A model generated the notes under the pieces. The model saw only the letters and a list, made by a program, of their open reading frames with translations, had not been told where the DNA came from and searched no databases. Below, in pieces: positions 3,716 to 19,018 of a DNA stretch of 30,904 bases (position 1 is its first letter; every line of letters starts with the position of its first letter). Source of the DNA: Candidatus Saccharimonadota bacterium. Lineage in GTDB: Bacteria; Patescibacteriota; Saccharimonadia; Saccharimonadales; JACDBH01. The DNA is taken from assembly GCA_020428565.1 (NCBI GenBank), contig JAGQMT010000001.1, forward strand, positions 1-30,904. Direction: 5' to 3'. A program made the position numbers and the translations under genes.

Positions 3716-4120
3716 ATGCAAGATTCGATTTTTACCAAGATTATCAAAGGCGAATTGCCCTGCCACAAAATCTACGAGGATAACAAAACTATCGCTTTTC
3801 TAACAATCCAACCATACATAGAGGGTCACACTTTAGTGGTGCCAAAACTCCAGATAGACGATTTTGAGCAACTACCAACCGAAGATTATCAAGCACTATT
3901 TACCACCGTCCAGAAGGTCGCAAAGCGCATCAAAGACGTATTCAATGTCCCAAAGACCGCCGTTACCGTCTTGGGGATGGAGATACCCCATGCCCATGTT
4001 CATATTATGCCAGTAGATAGCGAAGCATCCTATTTTGAAGCAATCGAAAATCGTGCTACTATCCCTAATGAACCTGACCATCAGCAACTAGCATTAATAG
4101 CAGAAAGATTGAGGTTTTAA
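3716..4120 (+). CDS. HIT family nucleotide-binding protein
   Basis: SIFTKIIKGELPCHKIYED N-terminus, GHTLVVPK, and histidine triad PHAHVHIMP. Confidence 0.95.
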   Translation: MQDSIFTKIIKGELPCHKIYEDNKTIAFLTIQPYIEGHTLVVPKLQIDDFEQLPTEDYQALFTTVQKVAKRIKDVFNVPKTAVTVLGMEIPHAHVHIMPVDSEASYFEAIENRATIPNEPDHQQLALIAERLRF

Positions 4121-4348: not shown

Positions 4349-5185
4349 ATGGATGAGCAGAGTTTGGGTAGGCATCTGCAGACTGCCCGTATGAAAGCGG
4401 GGCTAACGCAGCAGGAATTATGTCAAAAAGCGAGTATTTCTTACTCGACATTGGCCAAAATTGAACGTGGAGCCATCAAGTCTCCATCGGTTTTTACTAT
4501 CCAGCGCCTCGCAGAAGTATTAAACACTAGTCTAGACCAACTCATGGGTAGTTTTGGCCCAGCTCTACCTCAAAAAGGTAGAAGTAAAAGTGGAGTTACC
4601 TTTGTGTATTTTGATATCAATGGCTGTTTGGTTAGATTCTTTCATCATGCCTTTACCGAACTAGCCGAAGAAACAGGTATGCCGGCTGACCAGATAGAAT
4701 CAACATTTTGGCATTACAATGACGCCGTGTGTCGAGGCGAGATGCCTATGGATGAGTTCAACCGAATTATGGCCGAAAACTTCAAACACATGATTGACTG
4801 GAAGCATTACTACATGAGGGCTGTCGAACCTATCCAGCAAATGCACGATTTAGTCATCTGGGCGTCACACTATTATAAGGTGGGTCTTCTTAGTAATATT
4901 ATGCCCGGCTTTATACCTGATATGCTAGGTAATGGCTTGTTACCCAATATTGAGTATGATACCATCATTGATTCATCAGCGGTAAAAACTATCAAGCCAG
5001 AGGCACAAATATTCCAAATTGCCCAGGAACACTCTGGCGCTAACTCTGGCGAAATACTATTCATCGATGACTCGAGGGCTAACATTATGGCGGCCAGTCA
5101 GCTAGGCTGGAAAGTGTTGTGGTTTGACGACTTCCGCCCAGAAGAATCCGTAGCGCGCGTCAAGCAAGCCCTAGAGCTAGCCTAG
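4349..5185 (+). CDS. XRE-family HTH fused to HAD-superfamily hydrolase
   Basis: N-terminal ARMKAGLTQQELCQKASISYSTLAKIERG. HAD motif I FDINGCL, motif II LLSN, KPE and motif IV FIDDS. Confidence 0.9.
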   Translation: MDEQSLGRHLQTARMKAGLTQQELCQKASISYSTLAKIERGAIKSPSVFTIQRLAEVLNTSLDQLMGSFGPALPQKGRSKSGVTFVYFDINGCLVRFFHHAFTELAEETGMPADQIESTFWHYNDAVCRGEMPMDEFNRIMAENFKHMIDWKHYYMRAVEPIQQMHDLVIWASHYYKVGLLSNIMPGFIPDMLGNGLLPNIEYDTIIDSSAVKTIKPEAQIFQIAQEHSGANSGEILFIDDSRANIMAASQLGWKVLWFDDFRPEESVARVKQALELA

Positions 5186-5211
5186 ACTCGGTATTTTAAA
5201 CCAAAGAGAAA

Positions 5212-5268
5212 CCCCAATTATCATTATCCGCTATACGGAACTCATTAGAGTATGAGTGATAATTGGGG
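5212..5268. terminator. Y-shaped (three-way) hairpin at the convergent end of the HAD gene and cassette A
   Basis: 12-bp stem CCCCAATTATCA/TGATAATTGGGG with two inner arms (TCCG/CGGA and ACTCAT/ATGAGT alternatives). Followed by a U-rich tract on the - strand. Confidence 0.55.
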
Positions 5269-5506
5269 GGTAGAGTGCCTTGATTGTCTGTCTATATGAC
5301 AGTATAGGTACAAGGCAGACCAGTGACGGTATTAGTATCTATGAGACACTTTGTGTATAAGCACGTACCGAAGCGCACTTCCCTGCTCGATGGACAGTCC
5401 ACAGAGCTTTGTTTCACCTCCAGGGAGAGGTTAGTTGGTTATCAGTTCCTTACTGCTAGGCGCATAGTTTGCGTAGTAGCGAGTCTATGCGAGACTCTTG
5501 GAGGCT

Positions 5507-6019
5507 TTAGCGACAGGCGAGCTCTCGCTCAACCCAGAAGTCATAGACTTCTGGGTTGTCGAGGCTCACTGCCTCGCGAGAGCGCTCGCCCGCGAGCGCT
5601 CTCGCCCTTACAAAGGCCTTGTAATATAGCCCTTCGTAAGGGCGGCCTCGCCTGTCGCGCGTGACGATAAGCGTCACGCGCCATGTTCCGTCCGCCATCT
5701 TGGTGGCGGCGATGAGGGTTCCCGAGGTGGCCGATGCCACCTCGATGTACCTCACTGGTGATTTCTCACCAATGAGGTACCACCCCCCTCCGACGTCCGC
5801 CTCCTCCACGAAGTGGAGGGTTTTTTTGTCATGGCCAGGGGCCATGACAAAAAAACGGCTCCCGAAGGAGTGGGTCGCCATGGCGACCTCCACTCCTTCA
5901 GGAGTCAAGCCGCTTGGGCAATGGGAAAACCCATGCCCAAGGGCCTTGGCAACCAGGTCCCAATCGTTCGTATAGAACACTTCGTCGAACATCATCTCCC
6001 CTTTTCGGGTCGTGTGCAT
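5507..6019 (-). CDS. Hypothetical protein with hairpin-tiled coding sequence (cassette A)
   Basis: 170-aa ORF. AAAGGGGAG lies just before the ATGs at 5995/5992, the likely start. GC-rich (35/60 G+C in 5521-5580 and in 5581-5640). No family recognised. Confidence 0.6.
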   Translation of the reverse strand: MHTTRKGEMMFDEVFYTNDWDLVAKALGHGFSHCPSGLTPEGVEVAMATHSFGSRFFVMAPGHDKKTLHFVEEADVGGGWYLIGEKSPVRYIEVASATSGTLIAATKMADGTWRVTLIVTRDRRGRPYEGLYYKAFVRARALAGERSREAVSLDNPEVYDFWVERELACR

Positions 6020-6287
6020 TTAGCATTGTTGCTAGGCTGCACGCCTCAAAGTCTCTAGTTTTAGAGCCCTTGAGCCGAAACTCAACTACATTGGCCATAG
6101 ACCAGCAATCGAGTTCCGAGCCCAAAAGCTCTAGTTACACAAAGTCAGAAAATGTTTGTATATCATAGGAACTAGCTCGAATGAGAGGCTCTTGTATTTG
6201 TACAAAGAATAGACTCCTTCCTACCAACAAACACCTTTACCGAACTAAGATAACCCAGCTTTTAATGTACGGAATCTTTGATTACTC

Positions 6288-6333
6288 AAAAATTCCCGGA
6301 GAGGCTGATGACATATCAGCCCAACCGGCAATT
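6288..6333 (-). terminator. Probable terminator of the helicase gene
   Basis: Long hairpin AATT.CCGG...GGCTGAT/ATCAGCC...CCGG.AATT followed by a T run, directly after the stop at 6338. Confidence 0.55.
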
Positions 6334-6337
6334 TTCG

Positions 6338-9300
6338 CTAACGATTACCATGATTTTTGGTAAATCTACTCTCTAGTGCAGATAGTGCCAGATCCAGATC
6401 ATCTACCGCCATAGGTATTTCGCCAAGACCATCATCAGGCGTAGGCTTATCAACAAGCTTAAGGGCATAATTGGTGTTACCATATTTTTCATACGACAAC
6501 AATACAATCACCCTTTCGCTATCTAGACGAATCTCATCTAGCAAATAAGCCTCCCGGCCATCGGCCGTATATTCTTGTGGACCCGACTCTGCCGCTACAT
6601 AGCTGTGACTGCCCAATCTGTCACGATAACCAGAATTCATTATCTGATCATACGACATCAACAAGCCAGTCGTGCTACGCAACTTCAGGTAAGGTCTCTC
6701 AACACTATCTACAGCAGCTTCGATTAGCTCATTGTCTAAATTATAGACGTCCTCTAGTAACTCATCTTCTTGACGTTCTGTTTCTTCGTCTCCGATTTGC
6801 CACGCACCCTCAATAAATTGATGGCTCTGTTCAATGTGACGAATTGCATATACTTGCTCCGATGTCAGTTGATCTGGCCAAGAAGCCACCTCGAAACTAC
6901 CAACATTTGGATCCCGTACAGATGAAGCAAAAGTTAAAGCGATTTCATCAGGATAAATCACATCCCAGATTTTATCAGAACCATCTCTATCAGCTTGCCT
7001 TAATTCTCCTGCAGAATTAACTACCCAAAAATATTGGTTGCCTGAGCCAGTTCCAATCCTTGTCCTACCTCCAAAATTTGTTAAGTAATCACCAGATTCT
7101 ATTAATTGCTGTTCGTACTCCCTCTTTAAACGCTCAGCCTGTCGTTCATGCAGTTCGGCTTCTATTGTCTCTACACCACTGTATACGTCTTCGATACGAC
7201 TATAGCTACGCTGGGCACCATCAGGCATATCAACCAAAAGTCTCAAGGCTACATTCGTAGGCAAAACAGACACATCACCATTAACAACTTGTTCCCAAGA
7301 TAAGGATATCTGAGCCTCTAAAGTTGAATCATAGGACCGAACATAATTAATCGGTACTTGCTCATCCATAACCATCATGACATCTGGATACTCACGCATC
7401 AATGCTTCGGTCCTTGTAATGTCATCTTCGTTGAATATATCATCCCAATTTAATCTGGGTGCATTGGCAAGTAGTGTGTGTAAATTAGTAATGTTATTTT
7501 CAGTCAATTGAGAAATTATCACGCTGTCAAGTCGACTCTGCAGATCTGTAGCAAACTGTGGATCAAACGTACGTGCCCAAGCTTGCAACTGATTTATCTC
7601 TTGTCTCCAATGTAGGTATTGTTGACGCAAAGGATGATTAGCACTTAGCAAAATATTCGCGAAATGTTCTTGAAGTTTATCAAAATCTGGAACAAGCATC
7701 TCTTCTCCAACAACCAAATTACCAAACAGCAAACTATGCTTATCACCAGCATGACCGTGTTCACTAAATACGATATCACCCACATCAGACAGACTAATAA
7801 GTTGTGGGGCAATCTCTGGCAACCAAGCTGGATCAACTTTACTAGCGCCCTGTAATAAGTTGAGAGTCTTAGGCCCTCGCTTGGTATTAATTTGAAGATC
7901 AAACGGAGTCGCCACCAATATATCACTACTACAAACACTACTACTTGATAGTTCACGATTTGAATCTTCTAAGGCAGAGTCATAGCTACCAGCATAGTGA
8001 TGAACCCACACCTGATCAATTAGTCCAGCGGCTATACACTTCAGTACAGCCTCTCTGTCTTCTGGCGTTAGTTCTTGAGTGCCGTCAGCACGCAACCCCA
8101 ACCGACTACGTATTTCCCTAATGCTCTGTTTTGCCGATGATACGTTCTTGCCCAAAATGTCATATTCTGACCATTTTTTATCAACACTACTCAATGCACG
8201 CAGTACATCACGCTGAGCCAAAAAGTCTGAATCTACTTCCTTTGTAAGTCGTTGCCAAGCAACATTATATTTACCGTTTTTGACAATTCCACCAGCCTGC
8301 TGAATACCAATACACTCCACCAAAGCTGATTGTACGTGCTTTGGATATTTGTGAGACTCAACAACCATACGTGCTAGATGAGTTTCTAGAGGCAACCGAT
8401 CCATCTTACGGCCTATATCAGTCAGTTCCTGATTTTCGGTCAAGGCACCCAATGTCCTAAGACGTAATTTAGCCTGTGCAATATCACCCCTATCAGGCTG
8501 ATGAAAGAAATCCATTGATTCCATGTCAAAATTACTAGCCGCCAATCGCAACATAGTTCGATCCAGTCGAGTGCGTAATATCTCGGGTGTTGGATGTGCT
8601 TCGCGCTCCTCAAACGCCACCGCAGTGCCAATGTTTTTCAAACTTGCCAACACATACTCTCCAGGCTTGGTCCTTCCAGCCCTACCAGCTCGTTGCAAAC
8701 AATCCGCTTGACTGATAGGTGCCATAAATAACCCCTCAACACCTTTGCGCTCTTCGGTACGCCTCTCTAATCCACTGTCTACCACAGCATCTATATCCTC
8801 TATAGTAATGCTAGTCTGAGCTACATTAGTAGCTAGTACAATCTTACCGCCACCGTGCTTCATGAACGCCTTGCGCTGTTCCTCTGCCGACAACTGACCG
8901 TGCAAAGGTATAATTGGTACACTAACACCACGGCTCCGGAGATCTCTCTCGACATCATCAATTTCTTTTTTGCCCGGCAAGAAGACAAGCGTATTTTTGC
9001 CTTGCTGTGCCATAGCAACGGTCTCGTCAACCAAATCCCCACCCTCCCGTCTAGCAACATCAAAGGTTCTACCCGGTACTTCTATAACAGGGGTTTGATT
9101 ACCAAAATACTGACTCAGAGCCTCGCTCTCTAGCGTTGCACTCATGGTCACTATTTTAATCTGCTCTTTTTTGGCCCATGCTAGTAGCACTTCAATATTC
9201 GTATTCCATTCATGTACTTCGTCTACTACTAGAACTTTCTCTCGCTCGACCCGATCTTCCCGACCTGCCAAAGACCGCACGACCTGTAATCCATCAGTAC

Positions 9301-9649
9301 AAAAAGTGATATCCGCATCCGCTGGACCAGATTTTTCTTTGGCCGTTCTATAGGCAACCGATATTGAATCGTCCGCTTCTTCTGCAACACGTTCGGCCAC
9401 CGTTCGAGCAGCCATAACTCGTGGCTGAGTCACTATCACTTCATAGCCAGCCTCAGCTAACATCTGTGGCACCTGCGTACTTTTGCCAGCGCCTGTTTCA
9501 GCAGTAATAACTGTTGCCTGATTAGATTCTACCGCATCAATAATTCGTTCTCGATAGGCCATAATTGGCAATTCTAGACCATCTAATATAACGTCCAGAT
9601 TATCTATCGGCTTATTATAATTATCCTGTTGCGTATTCCCTGTTGTCAT
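6338..9649 (-). CDS. HrpA/HrpB-like DExH-box (DEVH) ATP-dependent RNA helicase with a long unrecognised C-terminal region
   Basis: Motifs AETGAGKSTQVPQ, TQPR, FCTDG, DEVH, SAT, LVFLPG, PLHG, ATNVAQTSITI, QRAGRAGR, then an HA2-like LT.IGRKMDRLPL segment. 1103 aa. Confidence 0.9.
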   Translation of the reverse strand: MTTGNTQQDNYNKPIDNLDVILDGLELPIMAYRERIIDAVESNQATVITAETGAGKSTQVPQMLAEAGYEVIVTQPRVMAARTVAERVAEEADDSISVAYRTAKEKSGPADADITFCTDGLQVVRSLAGREDRVEREKVLVVDEVHEWNTNIEVLLAWAKKEQIKIVTMSATLESEALSQYFGNQTPVIEVPGRTFDVARREGGDLVDETVAMAQQGKNTLVFLPGKKEIDDVERDLRSRGVSVPIIPLHGQLSAEEQRKAFMKHGGGKIVLATNVAQTSITIEDIDAVVDSGLERRTEERKGVEGLFMAPISQADCLQRAGRAGRTKPGEYVLASLKNIGTAVAFEEREAHPTPEILRTRLDRTMLRLAASNFDMESMDFFHQPDRGDIAQAKLRLRTLGALTENQELTDIGRKMDRLPLETHLARMVVESHKYPKHVQSALVECIGIQQAGGIVKNGKYNVAWQRLTKEVDSDFLAQRDVLRALSSVDKKWSEYDILGKNVSSAKQSIREIRSRLGLRADGTQELTPEDREAVLKCIAAGLIDQVWVHHYAGSYDSALEDSNRELSSSSVCSSDILVATPFDLQINTKRGPKTLNLLQGASKVDPAWLPEIAPQLISLSDVGDIVFSEHGHAGDKHSLLFGNLVVGEEMLVPDFDKLQEHFANILLSANHPLRQQYLHWRQEINQLQAWARTFDPQFATDLQSRLDSVIISQLTENNITNLHTLLANAPRLNWDDIFNEDDITRTEALMREYPDVMMVMDEQVPINYVRSYDSTLEAQISLSWEQVVNGDVSVLPTNVALRLLVDMPDGAQRSYSRIEDVYSGVETIEAELHERQAERLKREYEQQLIESGDYLTNFGGRTRIGTGSGNQYFWVVNSAGELRQADRDGSDKIWDVIYPDEIALTFASSVRDPNVGSFEVASWPDQLTSEQVYAIRHIEQSHQFIEGAWQIGDEETERQEDELLEDVYNLDNELIEAAVDSVERPYLKLRSTTGLLMSYDQIMNSGYRDRLGSHSYVAAESGPQEYTADGREAYLLDEIRLDSERVIVLLSYEKYGNTNYALKLVDKPTPDDGLGEIPMAVDDLDLALSALESRFTKNHGNR

Positions 9650-9680
9650 AAATTTCTACTTATAATACCTGTTATTGATT

Positions 9681-9731
9681 ACTGTTTCGTCGTTTTCGAC
9701 TCATCAGAGGTGATACACATCACCTGACAGT
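9681..9731 (-). ncRNA. Type III hammerhead ribozyme
   Basis: Minus strand reads ACUGU-C / AGGUGAU-gugu-AUCACCU / CUGAUGA / GUCG-aaaa-CGAC / GAA-ACAGU: all conserved core bases, a G10.1-C11.1 pair, stems I-III and a GUC cleavage triplet. Predicted cut between 9726 and 9725. Confidence 0.93.
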
Positions 9732-10010
9732 TTGGGGTGTTGAATTTTGAGCAAAGCCCAAACACACCCCGTAGAGCACGGACATATATTAAAGAGGGGT
9801 CCGATTACCTCTAGTTCCTAACAAATTATTCAGTCCCTTATCCTTGGCTGATAGAATTATCAGTTCTTTCCTGAACCTAAAATTCATTTCACCAAGGCCG
9901 TAGACCTTACACCATAGTGTTAGCTATGGGCTTCCTCCTGCCTGTTAGCCAGACATGTCATATCACTATGACCTTTACCTCCGAGGGAGAGATAAGTTCA
10001 ACCGAGCTCA

Positions 10011-10355
10011 CTAGTTGCGTGCCAAAGCACAGCACCCAATGATTCGCCCGTCGGCATCCCTCACGGGTCCGCTCGTTGTGAGCAGATCGTGGGTGGGACG
10101 CCCCTGGGCGCGAGCCGCCGACACCGTGATGAAACTCACGATATAGGCAATTCCCTCGGTTGGCACGGGCAAGTCTTCGACTTCGCCAAACACCGTCTTG
10201 ACGACGGGTACGGCAAAACCATCGACCATCACCGCTCCGACCTGATGGTCAGATTGACGTGCCCTTGCCACTCCACCACTCGGAGCGATCGTCGCCACGA
10301 CATCATCGTCAGCAACAATCATCACCGCATGGGGAGTGAGGTTCACCAATTCCAT
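10011..10355 (-). CDS. Small NLTPH-motif protein (cassette B)
   Basis: SD GGAGG 5 nt upstream of ATG 10355. Sequence MELVNLTPH...PSG.VAR...V..LP.P....YIVS...VRDADGRIIGC..L matches a small conserved family often seen in phages and accessory regions. 38/60 G+C in 10021-10080. Confidence 0.8.
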   Translation of the reverse strand: MELVNLTPHAVMIVADDDVVATIAPSGGVARARQSDHQVGAVMVDGFAVPVVKTVFGEVEDLPVPTEGIAYIVSFITVSAARAQGRPTHDLLTTSGPVRDADGRIIGCCALARN

Positions 10356-10902
10356 TTTCACCTCCTTTTTAGTTGGCGAGCGTCTGTGGTTCCGGGACTT
10401 CCGGCAGACAGGAAAAGGTTGGAGTAAGTTACTCCACTAGGTGAATCAAGGGCGCATTGAACAAGACTACTAAGGCAGTCTACATATCATGGACACTAAT
10501 ATCAGCTAGTGGAATAACCCACTCTTTTACAGATATAAATTTAATGTACAGACCATCACATCCTAGCGATAGCCTTAGGTCCCGGTCAGTCGGTTCAGGA
10601 CTTAAGGCTGGTCAATTCGGTCAGCAAAGCCTCTCTATAAGCCTTACTAATTAACCACGCCTGTCTTTCTAAAATCATCGATACTCTGCCTATCCATCAC
10701 CAATAATCTACAATTATCAAGCTGGGAGGAGCAAGCTTTTAGCTTATGGCTCAACTGCCTAGATGTACGAGTGCTCTAGTTCTCGTATCAACAGCTCTAT
10801 CTAGAATCTATGTCTAGATCAATCTATTTAGATTCTTGGTAAGTAGGTCAAGTTGTCAATGTAATCGTTCTCAAAATGCCTCTCATTCATCGAACTGTAT
10901 AC

Positions 10903-10931
10903 ATCATACCGTAAATGTTTAAAAATGTCAA
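10903..10931 (-). promoter_or_regulatory. Sigma70-type promoter, divergent from the TrmB-like gene
   Basis: TTGACA (10931-10926), 17 bp, TATGAT (10908-10903). Confidence 0.6.
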
Positions 10932-10994
10932 TAATGTTATACGATATTCTCACTCAACAGGGGTAATTACATACTACTTTTTGTCAAAAGCTCG

Positions 10995-11023
10995 TTGACA
11001 AAATAATATTTTTTTGCTAATAT
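10995..11023 (+). promoter_or_regulatory. Promoter of a leaderless TrmB-like gene
   Basis: TTGACA, 17 bp, TGc-TAATAT, 7 nt, then ATG 11031. Confidence 0.75.
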
Positions 11024-11030
11024 AGTCAAT

Positions 11031-11768
11031 ATGACCCCCGAATTACTAGAAAACATCGGTCTCAACCATTCTCAAGCAAAGGCATATTTGGTATTAATCG
11101 AATCTGGTGCACTCACCCCTACCGAACTAGCCAACAAGATATTACAAAAACGCACTACTACCTATATGATAATGAATCAACTAGAAACACTAGGCTTGGT
11201 AGAAAAAACAACTAAGGGCACCAAAACCGCCTATGAAGCCACCAATCCCATCGCCCTAGAAAAACTATCTGAGTCACGACGCAAACAACTGCATCAAGCC
11301 GAAACCAGGGTTAAGCAAGCCATGCCCGCCCTACTCAGTTATTACTACTCCATTACAGAAAAACCAGGTATCAGGCTAGTTCAAGGCGTAGAAGGACTAA
11401 AGGACATTTATGCCGATACTTTGCGCGCTAAACAAGATATCTACTTCTTACGAACACCAGCGGATGTAGCAAAAATAGATCAAGAATATTTTGATAAATA
11501 CCGTCAAAAACGTGCTACGCTAGGCATAAAGACCTATGCCTTTACACCAGACACGGCACACAGCAGAGCTAGTTCCAATGACGACGAAAAGTTTCACATA
11601 CAGCGACAATGGATTAGCTCAGATATATATAGCGCGCCTGTAGAAATCGATGTCTACGGAGACAAGACCGCTCTACTTAGCTTTGGTGAAGATATAATTG
11701 GCGTTATCATACAAAGCCCAACTATCGCCGAGGCGATGAAACAACTCATCAGTAACCTCCCTAAGTAG
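11031..11768 (+). CDS. TrmB-family HTH transcriptional regulator
   Basis: LENIGLNHSQAKAYLVLIESGALTPTELANKILQKRTTTYMIMNQLETLGLV winged HTH, plus a C-terminal EIDVYGDKTALLSF effector/PLD-like domain. Confidence 0.85.
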   Translation: MTPELLENIGLNHSQAKAYLVLIESGALTPTELANKILQKRTTTYMIMNQLETLGLVEKTTKGTKTAYEATNPIALEKLSESRRKQLHQAETRVKQAMPALLSYYYSITEKPGIRLVQGVEGLKDIYADTLRAKQDIYFLRTPADVAKIDQEYFDKYRQKRATLGIKTYAFTPDTAHSRASSNDDEKFHIQRQWISSDIYSAPVEIDVYGDKTALLSFGEDIIGVIIQSPTIAEAMKQLISNLPK

Positions 11769-11780
11769 CTATCCCTGAGA

Positions 11781-12830
11781 TCATTCAAAATTAGACAAAT
11801 ACCGATGAATCTCTGCATCAGATTGTACAAACGAACCAACATAAGCTATAAATCTATCTATCTGGTCTTCAGATATGCCAGCAAATCTTTCTGTAAAATG
11901 GCTTCCCTCCGACCTGTGCCGAGCCAATATCTTACCAATCAAATCTCCTGGACGTGCAAAATCATCACCAACCCTAGGATCACGACCAATATCCAAGCTA
12001 AATCCCGTCGGAGACTTCGGGTCTTTATCTAGACGAATAGACAAATCTGCGGCATCAATAAATCTAGTATCGACCTGAACAGATTGATTATAACGATGAG
12101 CAGATTGTTCATTGCTGTGTGTAAATGCAAACTCAACTCTCTTTGCTGGTTCAACATCTACCCTCAATGTACCGCCATAATGATACTCATCAGGATAGAG
12201 GCCATCCTCAAGATCTGGCTCACTTTCAAATTCTGTCTCGTCGCCAGCGTACCTCCAAGTTTCATAACAACCAGCGTAAACTGCTTTTGTTCTACCATTA
12301 GTACGCATGGTGTAATCTGTCATACCAAACAAATAAGTACTCTGCTCGACAATACTTTCCTCTCCACTTACAAACCCCATAGATACAACTAATATGTTCA
12401 TAAGCGCGGTCAAATCACGCATAGCCACCACTGATTCACTCGTTGAATCGACATGCACATCAACATTCAACTCACTCCGTGCCGCCGATTCTATGATGTC
12501 ATAGGCTTCTCTCAGTGACCCACCTATCGCCATACCAATCTGAGGCTCAATACCAGCAAAACAATGCTCCAATATCGACACCGCTCGTCTCCCAGTCAAG
12601 CCTAGCTCATCTACTATACTGGACTCATGGTCAAGTCGTGCCCCTTCTCGATCAATAGCAGGATAAACAACCCTCGCCTTCTCCCGAGAAGTAAACATGT
12701 ACGGATATTTTTGCATCACACATGCAACCTCTACATCTGCGATTGCTGCCGAATCTTGCCCTAAATCCCGACTATCTGTGTCTGTGTTTTCTATAAGTGG
12801 AGCGATTTGCTCAATTACATTGCTACGCAT
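11781..12830 (-). CDS. Acidic hypothetical protein
   Basis: 349-aa ORF with its own consensus promoter. No family recognised. Confidence 0.7.
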   Translation of the reverse strand: MRSNVIEQIAPLIENTDTDSRDLGQDSAAIADVEVACVMQKYPYMFTSREKARVVYPAIDREGARLDHESSIVDELGLTGRRAVSILEHCFAGIEPQIGMAIGGSLREAYDIIESAARSELNVDVHVDSTSESVVAMRDLTALMNILVVSMGFVSGEESIVEQSTYLFGMTDYTMRTNGRTKAVYAGCYETWRYAGDETEFESEPDLEDGLYPDEYHYGGTLRVDVEPAKRVEFAFTHSNEQSAHRYNQSVQVDTRFIDAADLSIRLDKDPKSPTGFSLDIGRDPRVGDDFARPGDLIGKILARHRSEGSHFTERFAGISEDQIDRFIAYVGSFVQSDAEIHRYLSNFE

Positions 12831-12878
12831 TTTTGCATTCTTGAGTTATGGTTTTTTGTTTTAATTGCTTACATCTTT

Positions 12879-12907
12879 AATATAGCACAAAATTTGTTTA
12901 AAGTCAA
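12879..12907 (-). promoter_or_regulatory. Sigma70-type promoter
   Basis: TTGACT, 17 bp, TGc-TATATT. Confidence 0.65.
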
Positions 12908-12967
12908 TTCCGTGTGTTCCGTTGCACGTTTGCATCGACTAGCGATTGTACCCCAATGATTAGCGTC

Positions 12968-17071: not shown

Positions 17072-18382
17072 ATGAATCCACGAAAAATCGTCAAAAAACT
17101 CTTTCCCAAGCAAGTGTTCCAAAAGATAGAGCCCTATGGTCACATGGCAGAGGCTATGATCGCCCAAGCAAAGTATCATTTTCCAGCCAAAAACATCAAC
17201 GTAGTAGGTATAACTGGTACAGATGGTAAAACCACCACCTGCAGTCTTGTTGCATCGGTTCTGAGGGCTGGCGGTTATAGAGTTGGTGTGCTTACGACCG
17301 CCTACATTGATTATGGCGATGGGCGAGGAGAGCAAACCAACATCACCAACCTAACCACTGGCAACGCTTTTGCTCTCAACAGAATCATCTCTCAGATGAG
17401 AGCCAACCAAGTCGACTGGATAGTACTAGAAACCTCCAGCCATGCTCTCAATCAACACCGTATATGGGGTATACCTATCACCATTGCTATCATGACTAAT
17501 ATGAGCCAAGAACACTTAGATTATCACGGCACATTTACCAACTACCAACGTGCCAAAGAGATACTATTCAAGATGTGCAATCGCAACAAACACGGCTTAC
17601 AAACAGGTGTTGTCAATGCCGATGATGCCACTGCTGACAGCTTTGCCAAAAGAATCAAAAACTCAATCTCATATGGCATCAACAAGGGTGAGCTACGTGC
17701 CCAGGATCTCATAACCGACCTAAACGGCAACAGATTTAACGTGAAGACCGATAAACTCGACCATGCTTTTAGCACTCATCTTTTGGGTAGATTCAACACC
17801 TACAACGCACTATCCGCCATCGCCACAGGCAAAGTCTTAGGCCTTAGTCCAGAAGTTATACAGAGAGGACTTGATACCGTACAGAGCGTAGAAGGGCGCA
17901 TGATGCCACTAGATGTTGGTCAACCCTACAAAGTACTCATAGACTACGCCGTAACACCGGGGGCTTTAGAAAGCGTTCTTGGCACAATACGCGACATAGC
18001 AGGCAAGGGAAAGGTTCATATAGTCTTTGGGGCTACAGGTGATAGAGACAAGACCAAACGCCCCGCCATGGGAGAGGTTACCTCAAGACTAGCCGATAAA
18101 GTCTACCTTACAGATGACGAAACATACACAGAAGATGCCAGTAGTATCCAAAGCCAAGTATTATCTGGTGCATCAACCAAGAATAAACACAAAATTATCC
18201 AATTTGATGACCGCCAAGATGCCATTGCCAGTGCTATATCCAGCGCCAGAGCAGGGGATATAATCGTAATTTCTGGCATAGGTCATCAAACAACTCGAAA
18301 TATGGGTGGCAAGAAGATCAAATGGAGCGACTTAGAAATCACCAAACAACTCCTTCAAAAATCCCTTGAATCCAAAGCATAA
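17072..18382 (+). CDS. murE: UDP-N-acetylmuramoyl-tripeptide synthetase (MurE-type ligase)
   Basis: ITGTDGKTTT, LETSSHAL, TNMSQEHLDYHG, EGRM, DYA.TP.AL, FGATGDRD.TKRP.MG. Confidence 0.9.
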   Translation: MNPRKIVKKLFPKQVFQKIEPYGHMAEAMIAQAKYHFPAKNINVVGITGTDGKTTTCSLVASVLRAGGYRVGVLTTAYIDYGDGRGEQTNITNLTTGNAFALNRIISQMRANQVDWIVLETSSHALNQHRIWGIPITIAIMTNMSQEHLDYHGTFTNYQRAKEILFKMCNRNKHGLQTGVVNADDATADSFAKRIKNSISYGINKGELRAQDLITDLNGNRFNVKTDKLDHAFSTHLLGRFNTYNALSAIATGKVLGLSPEVIQRGLDTVQSVEGRMMPLDVGQPYKVLIDYAVTPGALESVLGTIRDIAGKGKVHIVFGATGDRDKTKRPAMGEVTSRLADKVYLTDDETYTEDASSIQSQVLSGASTKNKHKIIQFDDRQDAIASAISSARAGDIIVISGIGHQTTRNMGGKKIKWSDLEITKQLLQKSLESKA

Positions 18383-18439
18383 GGTATAAAGTATAATCAA
18401 TAACCTAATTATAAAATATAAATAAGTTAAATAGTTGCA

Positions 18440-18494
18440 AAAAGAAAATATGCGTTGTTTTATCTACTAGGAAATCTAGGATTAAACAACGCAT
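18440..18494 (-). terminator. Probable intrinsic terminator of cassette C
   Basis: 11-bp stem ATGCGTTGTTT (18450-18460)/AAACAACGCAT (18484-18494), followed on the - strand by ATTTTCTTTT. Confidence 0.6.
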
Positions 18495-18640
18495 CTTACG
18501 TCAATATTGGCTGAGACAGATCCAATCAAACATAGATATCTTCGCTGAAGGGGCACCTTTGTGTGCAATACATTGCGGTCGACGCCGTTGGCGACACACA
18601 AAAAAATACACAAAGGTAGCCCTCCCCCCAGCGATCTTGA

Positions 18641-19018
18641 CTACTTACGTCGTGATTGAGCGACGTTCTTGTAACGAGGCTTTTGCTTCGCTACGCCCAC
18701 ACCAGCAGGGTGCGCCTGACGCGAACGCTGACTCTCGCGATACAGAGTGGTCGCGAAATCGCATGCAGCCGCAATAACGTTGTAGCATTTCTCACTATCA
18801 CTCCCGACAGGAAAGCTGAAGTACACCTCCCCACAAACCATGACCTCCACGGTCACGCCAGTGCGTCGCTGACAACGAACAACTGCATCAGGAATGAATT
18901 CCTTCACCCCCAGGACACCTTTGTCCTCGATGGATACGTGCACACGATTGTGAAGGACATAGCCCACAATCGGGATCAGTCGCCCTTGAGCAACGATGTT
19001 TTTGTTAATATCTTGCAT
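18641..19018 (-). CDS. Hypothetical protein with hairpin-rich coding sequence (cassette C)
   Basis: SD AAGGAG (19028-19023) before ATG 19018 gives 125 aa, MQDINKNIVAQGRLIPIVGY... The longer track ORF runs through the promoter region. Confidence 0.6.
   Translation of the reverse strand: MQDINKNIVAQGRLIPIVGYVLHNRVHVSIEDKGVLGVKEFIPDAVVRCQRRTGVTVEVMVCGEVYFSFPVGSDSEKCYNVIAAACDFATTLYRESQRSRQAHPAGVGVAKQKPRYKNVAQSRRK

Follow-up and report, generated by a model that had tools for sequence, protein, structure and literature searches.

To our knowledge, the job of genomic hammerhead ribozymes in bacteria is still unknown. In bacterial prophage regions, clustered hammerheads flank single genes or short gene blocks, and in the haloviruses HF1 and HF2 the HHphage hammerhead lies 13 nucleotides (nt) upstream of a helicase start codon, and the 5' end of the helicase transcript has been mapped to no more than 3 nt from the cut (Perreault et al. 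2011, PMC3088659). Unk01 has been named Crn4; this ring nuclease also occurs on phages and plasmids, where Crn4b is a likely anti-CRISPR (PMC12830947). Here, a 30,904-nt stretch of DNA from a Saccharibacteria-type bacterium (the window) was analyzed, the feature under study being a minus-strand locus in which a predicted type III hammerhead ribozyme lies between a small gene for a Crn4b-like protein (orf114) and the gene for a long-form DEAH/RHA helicase.

Along the minus strand, the locus runs in the order promoter-like site, leader, 114-amino-acid (aa) gene, trailer (together cassette B), hammerhead, helicase, hairpin and U run, leader, orf170, trailer, and a final hairpin with a U-rich run (cassette A). 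A sequence-only reading of this DNA had already listed, on one strand and between the HIT/HAD and TrmB genes, cassette B, a hammerhead, 76 nt, a DEVH helicase, a terminator, and cassette A. This arrangement was confirmed by open reading frame (ORF) and domain calls, Rfam, hairpins, and folding z scores, as two islands of exceptional structure flank a helicase coding sequence (CDS) with z near zero.

We favor the reading, at a probability of roughly 0.55, that the locus is a conserved accessory operon whose transcript would be split by the hammerhead into a cassette mRNA and a helicase mRNA with a 5' hydroxyl (5'-OH). New here are the conserved junction of a hammerhead with one helicase subfamily and an 86-nt element that adjoins the ribozyme.

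The hammerhead ribozyme and the 86-nt element

The predicted ribozyme occupies positions 9679..9733 of the minus strand and was identified with Rfam RF00008 (44.1 bits, E 2.3e-7) and by its fold. The minimum free energy structure is a three-way junction in which stems I and II are closed by loops and stem III is open. The catalytic core can be read directly as CUGAUGAG, CGAAAC, and GUC, in agreement with the pattern CUGANGA ... GAAA, an A15.1-U16.1 pair, and an NUH triplet. In an alignment of 29 relatives, the core and the U-A pair are invariant and compensatory changes are found at 14 of 16 pairs. A lineage-specific model built from the 29 relatives (R1) scores the window's hammerhead at 66 bits, a value to be read with the presence of this sequence in the R1 seed, and gives independent copies from outside the seed 59 to 71 bits. 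Assignment to the type III hammerheads thus follows from the core and the three helices, with a score below the Rfam threshold, and self-cleavage is predicted. The cut is predicted after C9726 and would place 76 nt between it and the helicase ATG at 9649. The 665-kb assembly (68% complete) yielded no other hammerhead.

Approximately 170 nt upstream of the cleavage site can be aligned across lineages. The last 86 of these (9726..9811, minus strand) make up the 86-nt element, which forms three hairpins, ends at the cleavage site, and is the most conserved sequence of the locus. It shares 85 to 92% nucleotide identity with its counterparts at loci L109, L113, and L121, compared with 50 to 57% for the helicase CDS and 55 to 76% for the HAD CDS of the same lineages. 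A covarying hairpin precedes the element, up to about 9905.

A pattern scan for the element returned one true further copy, that at L121; six other hits were judged to be chance matches in GC-rich genomes. At L121, a crn4b gene, the element, and a hammerhead precede an ORF homologous (E 5e-15) to the one that stands between hammerhead and helicase at L114. The L121 contig ends before any helicase could appear, and no longer homologues of its downstream ORF were found. What follows each of the four known copies of the element is either the helicase or an ORF homologous to the one preceding the helicase at L114.

Conservation of the junction at long-form helicase loci

A whole-protein search with the window's helicase identified three full-length relatives, P0058 (1,077 aa, 54% identity over 95% of the query), P0059 (1,100 aa, 45% identity), and P0060 (1,116 aa, 41% identity), which ruled out an orphan C-terminus. 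Their C-terminal parts are 31 to 38% identical to that of the window's protein. Relatives sharing this part were found on metagenome contigs only, and since a search of 400 other species genomes from the class gave no match to the C-terminal 404 aa, the long-form subfamily appears to be rare and to come mostly from short metagenome contigs.

The loci of these relatives preserve the junction. At L109 to L112 (P0058), a TrmB gene, a crn4b-like gene, and an extra GC-rich ORF are followed by a hammerhead that ends 10 nt before the helicase ATG, and then by HAD and HIT genes. L109 is syntenic with the window (TrmB 58%, crn4b 73%, helicase 54%, HAD 83%, and HIT 73% identical), with the extra ORF separating crn4b from the 86-nt element. 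At L113 (P0059), the hammerhead ends 15 nt before the ATG, the helicase is followed by HAD (54%) and HIT genes, and the ORF fragment upstream is unlike crn4b. L114 (P0060) carries TrmB, small genes with two hammerheads between them, a 222-aa ORF, and then the helicase. In three lineages, the distance from the ribozyme to the helicase start codon is 10 to 29 nt. The hammerheads of the long-form loci score 59 to 71 bits with R1, which was built without them, and between these loci stems I and II covary and the core is fixed.

GC-rich, hyper-structured DNA was found upstream of all long-form helicases checked (z of -3 to -13), including P0063 and P0119, the C-terminal parts of which are much more diverged (15 to 19% identical to the window's). 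Every contig that extends far enough also carries a divergent TrmB gene (L109/L110, L114, L115/L116, and L129/L130), and the cargo between TrmB and helicase varies by lineage (MJ1673-like, radical SAM, orphans). At L129 to L131 (P0119), the order is TrmB, a 134-aa structured ORF (GC up to 0.76, z down to -13), a radical-SAM gene, a 1,065-aa helicase, a hammerhead, and an RNase T-like gene.

Shorter homologues of the helicase behave differently. Of 200 other genomes examined from the order, 17 carry them. They are mostly 770 to 950 aa (range, 770 to 1,030 aa, plus L011 at 1,126 aa), and all are without the window's C-terminal part. No hammerhead was found at any of 21 such loci (the 17 order genomes and four Saccharibacteria/Patescibacteria records), the flanks were unstructured at 15 of the 17, and the neighborhoods were of several unrelated types. 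A first conclusion that helicase and hammerhead are not associated was based on these shorter homologues and holds for them only. The expectation in the sequence-only reading that the helicase would co-occur with hammerheads or structured ORFs was borne out for the full-length relatives, with structured genes upstream at the P0058 to P0060 loci. The situation that would have spoken against it, orthologues in varied contexts with no structured RNAs nearby, was largely that of the shorter proteins but not of the full-length ones, which have structured cassettes and hammerheads upstream.

Promoter-like sites and the predicted transcript

The best promoter-like site of the region, by consensus match only, is TTGACA-17-TATGAT (11 of 12 positions) at 10903..10931 on the minus strand, upstream of cassette B. 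A consensus scan detected no comparable site between orf114 and the helicase, including the gap between ribozyme and helicase. Directly after the helicase stop codon is a terminator-like hairpin followed by UUUUU (6289..6335, minus strand; -29.6 kcal/mol). A single transcript is predicted, since the only strong promoter-like site precedes cassette B and a hairpin with a U run follows the helicase.

A TrmB-family regulator is encoded divergently from the cassette-helicase unit (11031..11768, plus strand). In the divergent promoter region, a perfect 9-bp inverted repeat (10979..11003; TTTTGTCAA, 7 nt, TTGACAAAA) overlaps the -35 region of the promoter-like site of the TrmB gene and is a candidate operator, predicted from the sequence, for this TrmB-type regulator.

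The helicase and its C-terminal part

The helicase gene (6338..9649, minus strand) encodes 1,103 aa with DEVH as motif II. DEAD, Helicase_C, and HA2_N domains were detected, and the RecA1 and RecA2 domains with a DExH motif (here DEVH) are evident from PDB matches at E 1e-59. HrpA and HrpB models and the structures of Prp43, DHX8, HrpA, and HrpB are matched over about residues 18 to 695, the alignments reaching residue 626 with Prp43/DHX15 and residue 695 with the HrpB model. The HA2_N match is short (22.8 bits against a cutoff of 21, covering 26 residues), and no separate OB domain was called. The protein scored 252.8 bits against the HrpB equivalog TIGR01970, for which the cutoff is 546, and a Pfam domain search gave no match to HrpB_C (PF08482).

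The sequence-only reading had described an unrecognized C-terminus of roughly 400 aa and proposed a Foldseek search with it. A single-sequence AlphaFold model of this part had a predicted local distance difference test (pLDDT) score of 36.5 and was unusable, and a model of residues 640 to 1103 from a nine-sequence alignment reached pLDDT 77. The Foldseek search with the latter model returned nothing from the PDB at E <= 0.001. In an exhaustive structural alignment with VIA-align against 48,161 chains, HrpA ranked first (Z 6.5, model residues 17 to 199) and HrpB second (Z 5.1, model residues 2 to 196 against HrpB 597 to 784), and a feature-based search placed the C-terminus with the HrpB_C clusters at 0.90, a weak likeness. 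As these two approaches, each weak, agree, the first approximately 200 residues of the C-terminal part (about 640 to 840) are probably the usual HrpB/HrpA-type C-terminal region in the modeled structure. The last approximately 260 residues (about 840 to 1103) are beta-rich and received no assignment from the structure searches, so that the description as unrecognized stands for these residues and not for the approximately 200 before them.

Cassette B and its Crn4b-like gene

The gene of cassette B (orf114; 10011..10355, minus strand; 114 aa, GC 0.59) matches PADLOC Unk_01 at E 3.8e-20 and PHROG 30542, and the whole protein can be aligned to Crn4b (PDB 9r7b, E 5.7e-11). The T-x-H motif of Crn4 (Unk01) is present as NLTPH at residues 5 to 9. 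The gene is predicted to encode a real protein, a homologue of the Crn4b-like ring nucleases. Its leader extends from the predicted promoter (10356..10896, minus strand) and is structured between 10400 and 10700. The specific long-range pairs that had been proposed to close cassette B were not recovered; base-pair probabilities instead favor 10577 to 10585 with 9898 to 9907 (p about 0.7).

Hammerhead-ended cassettes in the order

Type III hammerheads forming one coherent family were identified in 35 of 151 genomes of the order, with as many as nine in one genome. GC-richer DNA preceded the hammerhead in 27 of 30 loci (26 of 29 without L024, which comes from an unpublished genome, G033, and was excluded from the alignment and from R1), the mean GC content being 0.54 before the hammerhead and 0.45 after it. 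Strong structure characterizes the upstream DNA, and the genes downstream vary (topA, a core sigma-like gene, an ABC ATPase, kinases, and NYN). Structured GC-rich genes upstream together with variable genes downstream fit a role for the hammerhead in making and insulating 3' ends. At loci L029, L030, L034, L041, L042, L045, L047, and L049, among others, an imperfect hairpin of 30 to 45 bp ends exactly at the cleavage site, and its 3' arm carries the common motif TGTCTGCTTGTCAT and the 5' strand of stem III, giving an alternative pairing. The G-U pairs of the L042 hairpin work on the ribozyme strand only.

Cassette B has the properties of this class, being a small GC-rich gene (0.59) with a structured leader and folded trailer (z of -11.5) and a type III hammerhead at its 3' end. 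Cassette A shares these properties except for the hammerhead and ends in a hairpin with a U run.

Using loci L075 to L104, the gap between topA and the core sigma-r4/HARE-HTH gene (HTH, helix-turn-helix), a gene present in 149 of the 151 genomes, was found to be about 210 to 270 nt long or to hold one small, variable GC-rich ORF, which in a few genomes is accompanied by a hammerhead. This junction looks like a recurrent site of cassette insertion.

Cassette A

The ORF of cassette A (orf170) spans 5507..6019 on the minus strand for the 170-aa frame, with a likely start at ATGATG (5995/5992) that would give 161 to 162 aa. It is preceded by a structured leader (6020..6288, minus strand; z of -4 to -7), and the 3' end of the cassette, facing the end of the HAD gene, is a terminator-like hairpin with a perfect 12-bp stem followed by a U-rich run (5212..5268, minus strand; -26.1 kcal/mol for the 86-nt segment). 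Judged by its sequence, orf170 encodes a real protein, for which 54 homologues sharing conserved motifs were retrieved but no Pfam family match. The genes of the homologues found elsewhere are likewise GC-rich, and the DNA flanking them is hyper-structured. The window contains nine perfect hairpins with stems of at least 9 bp, of which five lie within the orf170 CDS (5530 to 5856; stems of 9 to 17 bp, loops of 2 to 5 nt), and all five are unchanged in L061, a contig from another sample which, at 98.8% identity, has diverged too little for a covariation test. Of the 17 differences that separate L061 from the window, six are packed into 10 nt (5786 to 5795) and convert ADVGG to ADIEG in orf170; this cluster looks like a single templated or multi-base event rather than independent substitutions.

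Searched against the PDB, a profile of the orf170 family resembled TAL-effector repeat proteins at a summed E of 1e-23, although no single stretch passes, with the likeness located around the MATHSxGGR block. Three relatives (P0007, P0041, and P0042; 1,168 to 1,845 aa) contain seven to eight copies of the domain. As a lead only, the domain may be a nucleic-acid-binding repeat.

The two cassettes have sequence features in common. The 665-kb assembly contains exactly two copies of TCTCCCT(C)GGAGGT, one in the 3' untranslated region of each cassette gene (9977-9990 and 5416-5428, minus strand), and TATGAT followed by TATACA is found near the predicted starts of both. A regular-expression hit for a hammerhead after an orf170 homologue at L106 was rejected, as neither Rfam nor R1 finds one and the cassette ends in a terminator. 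Cassette A is also present in the 98.8%-identical strain contig. No counterpart occurs at L109 or L113, where the gap between helicase and HAD genes is 276 to 280 nt, and cassette A is consequently regarded as a lineage-specific insertion. Of the earlier description of a helicase sandwiched between two cassettes, the conserved part is the structured cassette upstream.

Composition and surroundings of the locus

Folding z scores (200-nt windows, minus strand) define an island at 5401 to 6200, with values of -4.2 to -13.8 and below -11 across 5501 to 6000, and a second at 10001 to 10700, with values of -3 to -4.4; the whole 835-nt cassette B (9726 to 10560) has a z of -11.5. The helicase CDS is at about zero in most windows and at about -3 to -4 in two near its 3' end (6401 to 6700), and the housekeeping genes of the window are near zero. 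Further strongly structured minus-strand stretches at 18301 to 18700 (z to -7) and 1801 to 2100 (z to -4.9) are probably what had earlier been named cassettes C and D. Both cassette genes have a GC content of 0.59, with 0.64 to 0.71 at third codon positions (GC3), compared with 0.43 for the genome. The helicase (GC 0.44, GC3 0.35), TrmB, and orf349 are host-like in composition.

The flanking genes are HIT (3716-4120) and HTH-HAD (4349-5185). The block from 5186 to 12967 is considered accessory, because HIT, HAD, and ValRS are directly adjacent in one genome of the same genus and two of the same family. Within it, the gap between TrmB and ValRS holds a 349-aa minus-strand ORF (11781-12830) for which Pfam, NCBIfam, PHROG, and PADLOC returned no match; at L109/L110 its place is taken by another unknown gene.

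Readings of the locus

In the operon reading, a promoter shared by the cassette(s) and the helicase, with a divergent TrmB-type regulator beside it, would drive first the GC-rich folded cassette(s) and then the long-form helicase, and the ribozyme would cut the nascent polycistronic RNA after C9726. The upstream product would be a folded cassette mRNA whose 3' end consists of the conserved element and an 8-nt tail bearing a 2',3'-cyclic phosphate, and the downstream product a helicase mRNA with a 5'-OH and the ribozyme body as a 76-nt leader. Cassette and helicase would thus share promoter and regulator and end on separate RNAs, whose stability and translation could differ. Cassette A would be a later, terminator-ended insertion at the convergent helicase/HAD junction, outside the conserved unit. 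Release of a 5'-OH helicase mRNA from read-through transcripts, as put forward in the sequence-only reading, is plausible on the basis of the consensus scan between orf114 and the helicase, and conserved to judge from the hammerheads at the relatives.

Several observations weigh against this reading. Co-transcription is argued from consensus scans alone, and the 44.1 bits of the window's hammerhead are under the Rfam gathering score of 48.5. No hammerhead was found within the available sequence upstream of the long-form helicases P0063, P0143, P0064, and P0061, and that of P0119 lies 195 nt downstream of the helicase. The lineages combining hammerhead and helicase are few, and three of them are orthologous loci with common HAD/HIT flanks, so that the conservation may partly reflect common descent. 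In addition, most long-form relatives are on short metagenome contigs.

Three other explanations compete with the operon reading. In the first, hammerhead and element belong only to the crn4b cassette, as its 3' cap, and the helicase is an unrelated accessory gene that lies by chance downstream, in a variable region, and has its own unrecognized promoter. The order-wide pattern fits this, as hammerheads follow GC-rich genes and the genes downstream vary and include housekeeping genes, and so do the non-helicase gene that follows crn4b, element, and hammerhead at L121, the difference in GC3 between helicase (0.35) and cassettes (0.64 to 0.71), and the position of the hammerhead after the helicase at L129 to L131. 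We nevertheless hold it to be unlikely, given that L113 keeps element, hammerhead, and helicase although its upstream ORF fragment is not crn4b-like, that at L109 an extra ORF intervenes between crn4b and the element, that the ribozyme stays 10 to 29 nt from the helicase start codon in three lineages, and that no promoter-like site was detected between the two. A second explanation, which treats the RNA features as secondary, would place the TrmB-type regulator (a Csa3-like winged HTH protein), the Crn4b-like nuclease, and the helicase in a module acting in, or against, cyclic-oligonucleotide signaling. The homology of orf114 to Crn4b, itself a likely anti-CRISPR of phages and plasmids (PMC12830947), points in this direction, as do the accessory and patchy distribution of the unit and weak matches of the TrmB winged HTH to Csa3/CasR. 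Yet PADLOC gave no convincing defense-system match for the helicase (best E 4e-6, to the generic ATPase part), the cargo between TrmB and helicase differs between lineages, and the Csa3 match is limited to the DNA-binding fold, which together make such a module improbable. A search of a phage collection gave no phage link for the helicase or orf170.

DEAH/RHA helicases load on 3' single-stranded tails, and the third explanation is a functional coupling in which the long-form helicase acts on the adjacent RNAs, for example by loading on the 8-nt 3' tail of the 86-nt element, or by unwinding hyper-structured cassette mRNAs for translation or turnover; in either case, specificity would come from its lineage-specific C-terminal 260 aa. 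In favor of the coupling, all four lineages with this C-terminal part have structured cassettes and hammerheads upstream, all four copies of the element precede the helicase or the homologue of the L114 pre-helicase ORF, and the primary sequence of the element is kept beyond what its stems need, as a protein-binding site would be. Against it, no homologue of the window's helicase was found in 29 of the 34 other genomes of the order that carry hammerheads, and co-occurrence at the genome level, counting any homologue, was not significant (odds ratio 2.0, p 0.31); cassette A is not kept beside the helicase; the shared descent of one locus could explain the association; the C-terminal fold was not identified by structure searches; and both cassettes are ordinary protein genes (Crn4b-like, and a family of 54 homologues), not RNAs needing a dedicated enzyme. 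We regard this coupling, too, as unlikely. The earlier proposal that the helicase is the dedicated remodeler of these RNAs fares accordingly: the conserved linkage and the sequence conservation of the element allow that it may remodel them, but with so many hammerhead-bearing genomes without such a helicase it cannot be a general remodeler of cassettes, and the fact that most cassette genomes have no helicase, together with the limited conservation of cassette A and the shared descent of the lineages, argues against a general or obligatory role. It is a more doubtful step still that element, hammerhead, and helicase form one working unit, in which the C-terminal domains of the helicase would load on the ribozyme-made end and control the fate of the cassette mRNA; if true, bacteria would offer here a first natural example of a self-cleaving ribozyme paired with a helicase dedicated to it.

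What distinguishes the locus is that one ribozyme and its 86-nt element have been kept at the same gene junction while the proteins diverged to 41 to 54% identity. The operon reading would give a hammerhead a concrete and testable job, the splitting of a regulated operon transcript, with a small set of natural variants at hand. Saccharibacteria are tiny symbiotic bacteria that are hard to study by genetics, and the locus ties a rare DEAH/RHA subfamily, a TrmB-type regulator, and a Crn4b-like anti-signaling gene to their GC-rich cassettes.

Comparison with known systems

Compared with HrpB, HrpA, and Prp43, the helicase aligns over the RecA1 and RecA2 regions and probably over the winged helix/HA2 and OB regions, but it scores far below the equivalog cutoffs of both HrpA and HrpB, and approximately 260 C-terminal residues are common only to three metagenomic relatives. 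orf114 resembles Crn4b (Chi et al. 2025, PMC12830947; PDB 9r7b) in the T-x-H motif (NLTPH) and a C-terminal GRIIGC block; it differs in that there is no type III CRISPR locus in the window and that the gene sits in a hyper-structured mRNA predicted to end at a ribozyme.

Among the hammerhead-ended GC-rich cassettes of Saccharibacteria, cassette B is typical in having its own promoter-like site, a structured leader, a small GC-rich gene, a folded trailer, and a type III hammerhead. It is set apart by the 86-nt element of three hairpins, which abuts the ribozyme in place of the long TGTCTGCTTGTCAT hairpin, and by the gene downstream, a long-form helicase conserved together with the ribozyme.

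Like the prophage hammerheads (PMC3088659), for which cutting long transcripts into gene-length mRNAs has been proposed, the window's ribozyme stands between same-strand genes of varying identity, and the anti-defense gene ardA adjoins theirs as crn4b adjoins that of the window. In contrast to them, the window is Saccharibacteria chromosome with no phage genes in view, its ribozyme is fused to an element conserved at 85 to 92% and follows GC-rich, hyper-structured genes, and its ribozyme-gene junction is kept across lineages with proteins 41 to 54% identical. The HHphage hammerhead of HF1/HF2 is a structural variant that precedes an ATP-dependent DNA helicase of an archaeal virus, and the likeness considered here is one of position; in both, the ribozyme stands a few nucleotides before a helicase start codon, and the haloviral case is a precedent for a helicase mRNA whose 5' end is made by a ribozyme.

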